From the NCBI RefSeq assembly GCF_000026545.1, contig NC_011601.1: a stretch of DNA of 64,000 nt; one strand, 5' to 3'. Shown one piece after another: positions 42,701-45,700 of the stretch; the first letter of the stretch is position 1, and every line of letters begins with the position of its first letter. The stretch comes from Escherichia coli O127:H6 str. E2348/69. GTDB lineage: Bacteria; Pseudomonadota; Gammaproteobacteria; Enterobacterales; Enterobacteriaceae. The position numbers were made by a program.

Positions 42701-45700
42701 AACGAAACATACAGTTATTCACGCATACTTAATAGTTTAGTCGATGGGACTTACAACCTAGACAACAGGAAAGATTTAGCCGAGTTTATTTATCATATGG
42801 AGATTAGAACAAAAAACTTAAGAGAAAACATGATAGATTCATGGGCATATTTTGGTGAGCAATTAAAAAACAGATTGCTAGACAAGGAAACTCTTATTGA
42901 TTATTTCCAAAGAAATCCAAAAACAATCAAAGAATTACTTCAAAATGAGTTAAATAAACTACCAATACCAGCAAGTCTACATGAGCAATATAACTCCATG
43001 TTTTTTGATAACGTTCAATTATGGCTACCAAATGCTGCAGAAAAGATGCTATCAACATTAGTTCCGAAGTTTGAGCAAGAAATAATATCAAAAATACCTG
43101 AAATAGTAAAAAAGGTTCAGTTAGATGTTTTGGTTTCATCTGAGGATAAGAAAAGTAATATTTATAAGAATATGCATTACAAAGTATTGAAAATAAATCA
43201 ATCTTTGATTTTAGGAGATAGTATTGTAATCTTTGAAGTGTCTGGGGAACGAAAGTTTAAGCCATTCTATGAAAGTAATGATGATTTAAAATGTATATAT
43301 ATACCATTAGATTCATATTCGCTACTTTATGCAACGCCAAATCCAGAAGATAAACCAAACGTGGATGGTATTAATAAGGCTATAGCACAGTGTTCATTTG
43401 ATTTTTTCATTAGTAAATTTCATAGTGATGAATGCCAAATATTTCGAAGTGAGATTGGTAAAAATGCGTTTATAGTTACAACCGAATATATTGACGAAAT
43501 TCTAAGCAAAATAATAACAGGGAATTAAAATAGGATTACTTAATGCAGGAGTTAGTGTCTAACTCCTGAATATATAATTAACGCATAATACGTTATGATG
43601 GTAATAGTATTTTTAATCCATCAAACCGCGAGAAGTCTTACTTGCGGTCTGACGAAAATCATAACGTTCCACAACATCACCCTTAAACCAGATATCCAGT
43701 GATTTAATGTGTGCCGTGCTGCTATTGGTCAACAGAGCAAGGCCCGGTATGTAGTTAGATAGTTGGCTTTCTCCCGTCATACTTGAGTAGTTCCACATCT
43801 CCTGTCCATCATTCGTAGCGCGTGTCTGAGGCTCTCCAAAGGCAGCAAGAATTTCTTGTTGGGTTGTTTTTCCATTGACGATTTTAACTTTAACCGTCTG
43901 ATGATTTTCATCAGTTAGGGATTTATTACCATGAACGGTACAGCCACCAAGTGGTAATATGATAAAAATAGCAAGTAATAATTTTTTCATTTTTGTTCCA
44001 TAAATAGATGAAAGGTGAGACTCAGAAAACATACTTTTTAAATACCAGCATCCATCGCTCGCAAAGTTCGTGATTTGAAGTGCTTTTATTTTTCAAGGGG
44101 ACATTAACTTTCCACATGGGATTTTTAATATCATCGGTTAAAATATTTAGGCCAGACCGTTTATTAGCTGAAAGTTGTTCTCTCCAGTTAGCAATAGCCG
44201 CATTATTCATACCTCGTAATGTTCCATTGCCATAAAACTTACCCCCCTCTGAAAGCGTATAATTTATTTCTCGAATTTGATCAAAAGTATATGTGCTGTC
44301 TTTATCTTTATTGAAAATACGGACAGTATGTTTTTGAGTATCAATTACAATACCTGTCTGCTGGCATTCATACGAAAGAATGTCGCCGTCCAGAACTTCC
44401 GTGAAGCTGTTGTAGTGTTTTTTCTTTTGTATATCCGCTGCGGTCATGATAATGACGAAGAGCACTACTAAAAATACGATACCTGTTGCTTCCACTCTTA
44501 CTTCCTCCATGTTAATGAGTTAAAGAGACTGAACCCGCTCACAGAGCTTTGCTACGTTTTATACGTCCTACAGCACCAAACTCATGGCATCGGTCTCGGC
44601 GTTGCAAGGCTATCAGAACTTGAAATTACGATCGATATAAAAGATCGATAATGAGTTATTGATAGATTATAGCGATTGAATGTGCGATATCGATCGGTGA
44701 TTAATTGTTATAATCGATCGAATATTTATTTATGATAGATGGAAGCTATTATAAGGTTGTTTTTGATCGTTTTAAACGATATGACGAGACGCTAAAAGAA
44801 TTGAATCCTATCAATTGGTTAAGCGGTGATTTTGCCATGTGATATCAGCCGGACCCCGCAACAACTCTAGCCCTGACCGGATTAGGTCAAAAATTTAGGC
44901 ACTTTGATTATCAGGATGGATAAGCAGATGAAGAAGATTTTACTCGTTGCTGGCGCAGCTCTGGCACTGGCGGGATGTGGTGAGAAAGGTGAGTTTGAGA
45001 AAGCGATTAATGCCAAGATTGGGCAGGGCAAATACTGCTTCTCGCTGGATAACAATAACACCAGCTTCCCCATCCGTCTTGCCAAGCCACTACGTGATTC
45101 GACTGGCACAGGGACCAATTCAGTGATCCTCGACGGTTTTATTGAGCAGGGCCTGATGGTTTTTGAACAGGGCTATGACTCGAACGTATTAGGGATAACA
45201 GAGGAAGGCAAAAAAGCCAAAGTCTGGAGCACAGCAGACGGTGCCTGTGTTGGTCGTCGTGCTGTTGATGAGATTAAGGAATGGACGGAGCCGGGAAACG
45301 GTAATCAGAAAGTAGTTCGCGTGACTTATACATGGAAGTTGGTTGACGTTCCGGGCTGGATTGACAAAAAAGCCTTCGCCAGCGTTAAAGGAATGAATGA
45401 TTCTGCTGATGGTGCCATGAATCTTGTTAAAACCAGCAATGGCTGGAGAGCCAATTAACAGTTCCCTCTAAAGATCTGTGACGAGCATGGCTAGGGGCTT
45501 ATGAGGGCGAGTTGCTGCCCTCATATGAATTTAATTTTTTCTTATTCATTCGTGAAGTTAACGAGTGTTAACTATATTTGCATTTGGCATTTTATTATAT
45601 ATATCTAAATATAATTTACCGAGCAAATATTTTTTATATTCTCTTTTGTCAAATCTTAATATACTACTTTCTGAGTTATTTTTGAAATATGATATTCCAG

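Follow-up and report, generated by a model that had tools for sequence, protein, structure and literature searches.

A conserved module of two lipoproteins and a membrane-anchored protein in the Escherichia coli island IE3 and related EARL islands, and its possible role as a barrier to incoming DNA

We analyzed a 64,000-nucleotide stretch (the window; all coordinates below are positions in it) that matches the chromosome of enteropathogenic E. coli O127:H6 strain E2348/69 at 100% identity, with emphasis on three small genes of the genomic island IE3. The island extends from about position 35,000 to 61,100, between yeeN on one side and a tRNA-Asn gene next to yeeO on the other, and stands out by a low GC content (about 30 to 40% versus about 50 to 58% in the flanking core). 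IE3 has been named as an excisable island of the EARL (ROD21-like) family of integrative mobilizable islands, which includes ROD21 of Salmonella and ICEKp258.2 of Klebsiella pneumoniae ST258 (PMC6035254), and we found in it the tRNA-Asn site, P4-like integrase, and AlpA-type excision factor of the EARL/ROD21 backbone together with the further hallmarks of the family, namely, a MobA/MobL relaxase, TraD, PilS/PilV, and an H-NS homologue. An earlier inspection of the window without database searches (the sequence-only reading) had described a cluster of two lipoproteins and one membrane-anchored protein at 43613 to 45458, lying between defense-type genes. The three open reading frames (ORFs) indeed occupy this interval and are all annotated in RefSeq, and their neighbors are those it had named, i.e., a DUF4238 gene on one side and an ATPase/HNH pair on the other (Table 1). 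We refer to the two lipoproteins as LP1 and LP3 and to the membrane-anchored protein by its domain, DUF4755.

Table 1. Features at and around the LP3-DUF4755-LP1 module of IE3
Feature	Coordinates	Strand	Description
DUF4238 gene	42473..43528	+	Cargo slot beyond LP1
Hairpin	43546..43568		Perfect 9-bp stem, CAGGAGTTA-GTGTC-TAACTCCTG, between the convergent DUF4238 and LP1 genes; read from sequence
LP1	43613..43990	-	125-aa lipoprotein precursor, WP_000734923; orthologue of ROD21 SEN1984
DUF4755 protein	44022..44495	-	157 aa, WP_000388422; orthologue of ROD21 SEN1983
Non-coding block	44615..44850		236 bp, between the divergent LP3 and DUF4755 genes
LP3	44928..45458	+	176-aa lipoprotein precursor, WP_000722545; orthologue of ROD21 SEN1982
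Hairpin	45501..45524		Perfect 8-bp stem, ATGAGGGC-GAGTTGCT-GCCCTCAT, then a T-rich stretch, between the convergent LP3 and HNH genes; read from sequence
HNH gene	45558..46490	-	PADLOC PDC-M62 best match, PtuB-type weaker
ATPase gene	46503..48023	-	PADLOC PDC-M62 best match, PtuA-type weaker

Each of the three proteins has hundreds of homologues, and in comparisons where the synonymous distance (dS) was not saturated, the ratio of nonsynonymous to synonymous substitution (dN/dS) was between 0.02 and 0.20 (0.05 to 0.20 for LP1 and 0.02 to 0.12 for DUF4755), pointing to purifying selection on all of them; thus, they are real genes and not chance ORFs. Both lipoproteins show a basic n-region, a hydrophobic core, and a lipobox with an invariant Cys, in agreement with their initial description: the N terminus of LP1 reads MKKLLLAIFIILPLGG-C (signal peptide and lipobox L-G-G-C) and that of LP3, which is divergently transcribed, reads MKKILLVAGAALALAG-C (lipobox L-A-G-C). 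The lipobox Cys is invariant across the LP1 family and in the alignments A1, A3, and A4. The Pfam LPAM_1 model scores 23 bits against a cutoff of 20 in LP3; it remains below the cutoff for LP1, where a Pro at -4 is excluded by the strict PROSITE rule. By the +2 rule, LP1 (Thr at +2) is probably anchored in the outer membrane, and sorting to the same membrane is predicted for LP3 (Gly at +2), which carries two additional conserved Cys residues. The 139-aa LP1 ORF originally proposed to start at 44032 proved to be an upstream extension, as the homologues and the RefSeq entry begin at MKKLLL.

The DUF4755 gene starts with GTG behind a GGAGGA ribosome-binding site (read from the sequence), precedes LP1 by 31 nt in the same orientation, and is presumably cotranscribed with it. 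Its product matches Pfam PF15947 over residues 44 to 158 (51.8 bits, E = 1e-13; cutoff, 27 bits), and profile searches recovered a family of 170 clusters at 50% identity. The N terminus is short and acidic and is followed by a single transmembrane helix and then KKKH. Some distant relatives have C-terminal zinc ribbons, one tandem-domain member is devoid of any hydrophobic segment, and others carry multipass membrane modules at the N terminus, which likewise keep the domain intracellular. Given the KKK after the helix (positive-inside rule) and the relatives with zinc ribbons or without a helix, the globular domain most likely faces the cytoplasm. Hence, the label of envelope proteins is appropriate for LP1 and LP3, with their lipoboxes, but probably not for the DUF4755 globular domain. 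The hairpin between the DUF4238 and LP1 genes has no T-run and was not called by the terminator scan; it is a possible bidirectional terminator closing the DUF4755-LP1 unit, and the hairpin beyond LP3, likewise uncalled, is a possible LP3 terminator, both assignments being of low confidence.

We surveyed the surroundings of the homologues in public assemblies, in one genome per GTDB species, and in IMG/VR, complemented by a tblastn panel of island proteins. The panel recovered a fixed order, MobA/MobL relaxase ... LP3(-), an optional DUF4755(+), LP1(+) ... RepL, in Escherichia, Klebsiella, Salmonella, Yersinia, Citrobacter, Cedecea, and Mangrovibacter, as well as in Brenneria, Dickeya, Pectobacterium, Samsonia, Prodigiosinella, and Symbiopectobacterium. 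In the clade with LP1 of at least 65% identity, a divergent LP3 is present in 25 of 29 loci and a DUF4755 gene lies in between in 9 of the 29. The islands without DUF4755 have 470 to 670 bp of non-coding DNA between LP3 and LP1; a degraded DUF4755 gene hidden in this gap was considered and rejected, there being no tblastn or hidden Markov model signal. In ROD21, the direct orthologues SEN1982, SEN1983, and SEN1984 lie between the MobQ relaxase and RepL with their order and orientation unchanged, and the S. Enteritidis LP3 (P0061) is 94% identical to that of IE3; by orthology and gene order, therefore, the IE3 trio is part of the EARL backbone. At deep divergence, LP1 (70 to 76% identity, near RepL and PilS) is among the most conserved island proteins, ahead of the relaxase (57 to 67%), TraD (45 to 53%), and LP3 (48 to 51%). 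An island with LP1 is found in 617 of 5,426 complete E. coli genomes.

In contrast to this fixed core, the ORFs between the relaxase and LP3 and those between LP1 and RepL change from island to island. They include genes for Lamassu LmuB, Hachiman HamA/HamB, Drt5 and other defense reverse transcriptases, PDC-S15, an Argonaute-associated (Aga) nuclease, a Cap4 nuclease, AbiGi, AbiJ, a KAP NTPase, and pP_pnuc with GIY-YIG; in IE3, the two slots hold a Septu-like pair and DUF4238, respectively. Because the module recurs in a fixed order across genera while both of its flanks vary, LP3-DUF4755-LP1 is a conserved backbone between two defense-cargo hot spots and not variable cargo. The sequence-only reading, which had treated the trio as small cargo of a defense island, has to be revised on this point: it is the defense genes alongside that are exchanged.

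The 236-bp non-coding block between LP3 and DUF4755 is conserved along with the module. Across 20 EARL islands, from E. coli to Dickeya and Yersinia, it is 65 to 89% identical to the IE3 copy, about as much as the flanking genes, while the non-coding DNA beside it averages 36% and 51% identity, and sub-blocks within it reach at least 94% column identity. It contains five GATC sites at fixed positions, four of them of the ATCGATCG type, and the whole LP3-DUF4755/LP1 intergenic region has four to seven GATC sites in every island versus about two expected. The block also holds repeated TTGATAG/CTATCA motifs and the palindrome-containing GATCGTTttAAACGATATGACG, the palindrome-containing stretch being GATCGTT(N2)AAACGATATGACG. 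On the minus strand, in the direction of DUF4755-LP1, promoter-like hexamers at 44776 to 44748 and 44693 to 44666 overlap GATC sites. An Rfam search gave no match within 43500 to 45600, and a common plasmid origin was rejected as an identity for the block, since distant blastn hits were confined to four large "plasmid" records. It may be a shared operator/promoter region, a Dam-sensitive switch, an origin, or another cis element. In the same island pairs (IE3 versus L012, L024, and L083), dS is 0.2 to 0.6 for LP3 but 0.8 to 1.2 for DUF4755 and LP1; this sharp difference across the block implies that the two halves of the module have different histories and that the block marks or promotes a recombination junction.

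The contexts of more distant relatives are informative mainly for LP1. Its distant homologues have 30 to 41% identity, and the positional counts from IMG/VR refer to 73 such loci. In 46 of these, the LP1 homologue directly follows cI in the same orientation, frequently within 150 nt. Salmonella phage S107 and E. coli phage PhiR26_1 show this arrangement too; among the upstream neighbors, a Pfam scan found the repressor-type domains HTH_3, Peptidase_S24, and Phage_CI_repr. The same slot hosts lambda rexAB and bstA of Salmonella BTP1, the latter of which is transcribed with the repressor in lysogens (PMC8585504). At 9 of the 73 loci and in Klebsiella phage RAH1, the homologue is instead found directly upstream of the tape-measure gene, which is the position of the HK97 moron gp15. 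HK97 gp15 is a superinfection-exclusion protein. RAH1 ORF58 (157 aa), upstream of the LP1 homologue, was examined as a potential DUF4755 protein and rejected, as it belongs to DUF2335. Searches of PHROGs placed LP1 in phrog_3135 (E = 8e-33), a family without an assigned function, and tblastn against 50,697 phage records matched LP1 to uncharacterized lipoproteins only; the corresponding searches of phage genomes with DUF4755 and LP3 returned no match.

A third context of LP1 is next to relaxase genes. The order in the E. coli ssrA island is MobA_MobL, DUF4755, and LP1, and about 10 genomes of Enterobacter, Pantoea, Brenneria, Pectobacterium, and Buttiauxella have a relaxase of a different family (PF03432) followed by a membrane protein and an LP1 homologue. 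At three of these loci (L048, L051, and L072), the membrane protein is a divergent DUF4755 protein, so that the DUF4755-LP1 pairing persists at 25 to 40% identity. About 1 kb upstream of the LP1 homologue, the loci L046 to L052, L063, L068, and L072 encode membrane proteins that share an N-terminal "MKRxWIAxxLP" transmembrane module, followed by either the DUF4755 domain or a domain unrelated to it that has additional C-terminal helices; this looks like a family with exchangeable domains downstream of PF03432 relaxases. The retention of a cassette of a membrane protein and a BamE-like lipoprotein down to 25 to 40% identity argues that LP1 and DUF4755 work together.

Relatives of LP1 occur in 135 plasmid records, mostly from Burkholderia and also from Acetobacter and Arcobacter, of which 100 were typed as conjugative; for LP3, whose relatives belong to conjugative plasmid backbones such as that of IncX4, 488 of 614 plasmid records are conjugative. 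All LP1 relatives that were read in detail are on prophages, mobilizable islands, or plasmids, with about 30 distant genome loci remaining unclassified. IncX4 plasmids encode a 218-aa lipoprotein (WP_172599041) related to LP3 (hhalign probability, 98.7%; E = 4e-16), with which it shares the lipobox, a FEKAIN motif, both Cys residues, and a C-terminal (N/S)xGW motif; it differs in its greater length, in its neighborhood, and in having only 24% identity by tblastn, and is likewise uncharacterized. In the IncX4 plasmid pAR-0430-2 (L161, 5121 to 6898), the LP3-family gene comes directly after hha and a gene of the H-NS family, all in one orientation. H-NS homologues are present in EARL islands as well, and there may be a tie between LP3-family lipoproteins and xenogeneic-silencing modules.

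Fold assignments differ in strength among the three families. The Pfam BamE model (PF04355; gathering threshold, 23.2 bits) gives 14.3 bits (E = 0.037) with LP1 and 24.2, 22.7, and 21.8 bits with phage LP1 homologues, and Phyre2 had previously returned BamE for SEN1984 with 99.7% confidence (PMC10655114). Profile searches of PDB sequences with all three families gave no match, BamE included in the case of LP1. These scores suggest a BamE/SmpA-OmlA-like fold for LP1, which resembles BamE in being a small lipoprotein and, tentatively, in its Pfam fold family, with a phage homologue just above the cutoff and LP1 itself below it. It differs from BamE in belonging to a horizontally acquired island, not to the core bamE locus, and in being no housekeeping gene. 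Clear homology to a housekeeping lipoprotein, which would have spoken against the original proposal, was thus not found; the resemblance is confined to a fold shared at or below the Pfam threshold. For DUF4755 and LP3, AlphaFold2 modeling from shallow alignments gave structures of low confidence (pLDDT of 56 and 58, respectively). The reliable part of the LP3 model resembles cystatin/latexin and NTF2/VirB8-like folds, with the cystatin type scoring higher, and we tentatively describe it as cystatin/NTF2-like; the structural neighbors of the DUF4755 model are PH-like domains, none of them significant. Both resemblances are to be taken as leads only.

What the cI, tape-measure, and relaxase slots have in common is that mobile elements use them for genes whose expression belongs to the resident state and whose products target newcomers. 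Since the contexts of LP1 are slots of such resident-state genes, and since there are precedents for lipoproteins in this role, we favor, with a probability of roughly 40%, the interpretation that the module acts in the resident state as a barrier to the entry of phage or conjugative DNA. The sequence-only reading had raised superinfection exclusion or abortive infection as functions of such small envelope proteins; the gene contexts make this plausible for LP1 and its partner, and the same support does not extend to LP3.

Under the proposed mechanism, the module would work in a cell that already carries the island. LP1, at the outer membrane and with its BamE-like fold turned toward the periplasm, would attach to a beta-barrel protein of that membrane; this could be a phage or mating receptor or the beta-barrel assembly machinery (BAM) that inserts such proteins. 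This binding would prevent productive docking or DNA ejection, much as phage T5 Llp, working from the periplasm, inactivates FhuA. With its domain on the cytoplasmic side, the membrane-anchored DUF4755 protein would act at the inner-membrane step, like the entry-exclusion proteins TraS and Eex and P22 SieA. LP3, with a promoter of its own and, in most islands, a small partner encoded downstream, would be a further periplasmic lipoprotein that evolves independently; as a member of a family shared with conjugative plasmids, it might act as an inhibitor or exclusion factor. A wider proposal, to which we give a low probability, is that the LP1 family as a whole is a cross-element exclusion factor, i.e., a BamE mimic on prophages, mobilizable islands, and conjugative plasmids that acts on BAM or a BAM-dependent receptor against both phages and conjugation, usually with an exchangeable inner-membrane partner (DUF4755 or "MKRxWIAxxLP" proteins), and whose expression in EARL islands is set by a switch rich in Dam sites that it shares with LP3.

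Several known systems bear comparison with this arrangement. T5 Llp, phi80/N15 Cor, mEp Lpp021 and Lpp010, and HK97 gp15 are small prophage-encoded envelope proteins expressed in the lysogen, and relatives of LP1 are found in the gp15 slot, with the tail chaperone on one side and the tape-measure gene on the other. Llp and Cor are lipoproteins that block the phage receptor. The mEp Lpp proteins are likewise lipoproteins that block the receptor (PMC11893012). However, none of these proteins has sequence similarity to LP1 detectable by tblastn (the mEp exclusion lipoproteins were specifically considered as relatives of LP1 and rejected), and LP1 differs from them in being encoded by a conjugation-type element and paired with an inner-membrane protein. 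On the side of conjugation, F TraT/TraS, IncC Sfx, and ColE1 MbeD are a lipoprotein and/or an inner-membrane protein of a transmissible element that act in the recipient. The outer-membrane lipoprotein Sfx mediates surface exclusion, with orphan sfx genes on mobilizable islands (PMC11493245), and ColE1 mbeD, located beside the relaxase gene, confers exclusion (PMC2831885). In contrast, LP1, DUF4755, and LP3 have no Pfam or NCBIfam match to TraT, TraS, or MbeD. We know of no exclusion phenotype for EARL islands. The likeness to RexAB and BstA lies in the slot taken by most phage LP1 homologues, which are presumably cotranscribed with the repressor in lysogeny; it is positional only, as RexAB and BstA are cytoplasmic or inner-membrane abortive-infection proteins, whereas LP1 is a secreted lipoprotein.

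A number of observations weigh against the interpretation of the module as a barrier. PADLOC v2 has no match for LP1 or LP3 and only a spurious Cas6 match for DUF4755 (E = 0.004), and the NCBIfam matches of the three proteins are to signal peptides or are subthreshold. The TraT, TraS, TrbK, MbeD, Cor, Llp, and Sfx families are absent from their Pfam, NCBIfam, and PHROGs results, Sfx having not been directly compared. The neighborhood of cI or a relaxase tells when and where a gene is expressed and not what its product does, and a position in the backbone fits the transfer or maintenance of the island itself equally well. The low confidence of the models (pLDDT of 56 to 58) weakens those parts of the mechanism that depend on folds. 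Moreover, the module is dispensable, because SEN1983 is a pseudogene in the ROD21 of S. Enteritidis (PMC3198454) and all three genes are broken in the widespread E. coli YD786 lineage (L165, NZ_CP013112.1, 1601613 to 1609195), where IS3 copies have truncated LP1 and LP3, and both DUF4755 and DUF4238 carry frameshifts. Finally, the only published phenotype is related to virulence: as cited in PMC6968874 and PMC10655114, transposon mutants of SEN1982 are attenuated in the mouse spleen and liver.

This attenuation, together with the reported transcription of SEN1982 (same sources), suggests that the proteins could be host-interaction or envelope-fitness factors of the lysogenic-conversion type, like lambda bor or lom, that do not block DNA entry. 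The cI-downstream and moron slots house virulence-type conversion genes too, and a BamE-like LP1 could modulate outer-membrane protein assembly, if what holds for BamE can be extended to LP1. However, the module is equally conserved in plant-pathogenic, insect-symbiotic, and environmental Enterobacterales (Dickeya, Pectobacterium, Brenneria, Symbiopectobacterium, and Mangrovibacter), and LP1 relatives are found on the plasmids of Burkholderia, Acetobacter, and Arcobacter; so broad a range of hosts disfavors a host-specific virulence role. The mouse screen, moreover, yielded no result for SEN1984, and SEN1983 is a pseudogene in the strain concerned (PMC3198454). We regard this explanation as unlikely.

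It is also rather improbable that the module is a donor-side mobilization accessory that helps the island to use the mating machinery of a helper plasmid, be it through envelope remodeling or mating-pair formation with PilS and PilV or through a membrane link to the relaxosome via the cytoplasmic DUF4755 domain. The place of the module beside the relaxase in the backbone would accord with such a role, but LP1 relatives are no less frequent beside cI or the tape-measure gene of lambdoid prophages, for which conjugation plays no part, and the IncX4 relative of LP3 adjoins hha-hns outside the type IV secretion operon; the structural matches that might be cited in its favor come from a low-confidence model in which cystatin-type folds score higher. 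That same cystatin-like fold could make LP3, and possibly LP1, a periplasmic inhibitor or immunity protein that neutralizes an envelope-active enzyme, incoming or self-made, such as a peptidoglycan hydrolase of the mating or phage apparatus, a bacteriocin, or a secreted toxin. We consider this very unlikely, for none of the islands examined has a conserved toxin or hydrolase gene alongside the module, the NCBIfam match is limited to the signal peptide, and the LP3 model is, again, of low confidence.

Turning to the genes next to the module, the DUF4238 protein has no match in PADLOC. In a Brenneria island (L026, 10464 to 11504), the slot downstream of LP1 likewise holds a copy with 50% identity, and the gene behaves like movable cargo. 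The ATPase/HNH pair matches PDC-M62 in PADLOC with E values of 1e-40 and 1e-22, and Septu PtuA/PtuB only weakly, and is a Septu-like candidate system; Dickeya islands have a similar AAA_15 ATPase with a 318-aa partner in the matching slot. In many islands, a partner gene lies downstream of LP3, encoding either a 91-aa protein of the SEN1981A type or a 218-aa alternative. The locus at 43613 to 45458 is missing it: SEN1981A, a 91-aa membrane protein downstream of SEN1982 in ROD21 (PMC3198454), has no counterpart in IE3. Conversely, DUF4755 is intact in IE3, whereas SEN1983 is broken in ROD21.

Elsewhere in IE3, the MobQ-family relaxase gene (48132 to 49601) is annotated in RefSeq as a pseudogene with an internal stop, its longest intact ORF being 413 aa. 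The island is able to excise (PMC6035254), but its own relaxase may no longer mobilize it. A search for the transfer origin with the MOBQ nick-site consensus gave chance-level matches only, none of them in the intergenic regions of interest in IE3. At 50951 to 53024, as in related islands, there are genes for a type IV major pilin (PilS-like) and a shufflon-type PilV tip adhesin with no other pilus genes, which suggests, by analogy, that the island might lend its own pilin and adhesin to the thin pilus of a helper plasmid. SGI1 is a precedent for an element that reshapes the mating apparatus of its helper. RefSeq also annotates an 80-aa truncated H-NS at 37681 to 37923, which is the H-NST antagonist described in enteropathogenic E. 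coli; an MvdC/MvdD-type ATP-grasp gene followed by two hypothetical genes at 54339 to 55244; and, adjoining the integrase, a DUF262 and HEPN pair at 57716 to 59547, which is likely to be further defense cargo.

The three genes of the module were already known as uncharacterized ROD21/EARL genes, with a BamE-like prediction for SEN1984 and an annotation of SEN1982 as a lipoprotein (PMC10655114 and PMC3198454). The published ROD21/EARL work treats them as hypothetical, does not count them among the conserved genes of the family, and is silent on phage and plasmid relatives, relaxase-linked cassettes, defense hot spots, and the intergenic block. A full-text literature search for "DUF4755" found no paper; the PIME preprint concerns another island family, and the E. 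coli defense-island paper is silent on the locus at 43613 to 45458. What is new, then, is the module as an invariant core between two defense hot spots, the three contexts of exclusion type in which LP1-family members are found in phages, islands, and plasmids, the deeply conserved cassette of a membrane protein and LP1, the plasmid relatives of LP3, and the GATC-rich block.

If the module does act in exclusion, it would represent an exclusion lipoprotein and an inner-membrane partner built from protein families that are unrelated to those known. A single lipoprotein family would then join superinfection exclusion by phages with entry or surface exclusion by islands and plasmids, and the outer-membrane assembly machinery or its client proteins would be implicated as a shared target. 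EARL islands would hold a constant first-line barrier between two swappable defense slots, which could help to explain their persistence. Should the module serve transfer or host colonization instead, it would still be a conserved, uncharacterized part of a clinically relevant island family. In practice, the invariant LP3-LP1 pair and the intergenic block are good anchors for mining both defense hot spots in the genomes of Enterobacterales.

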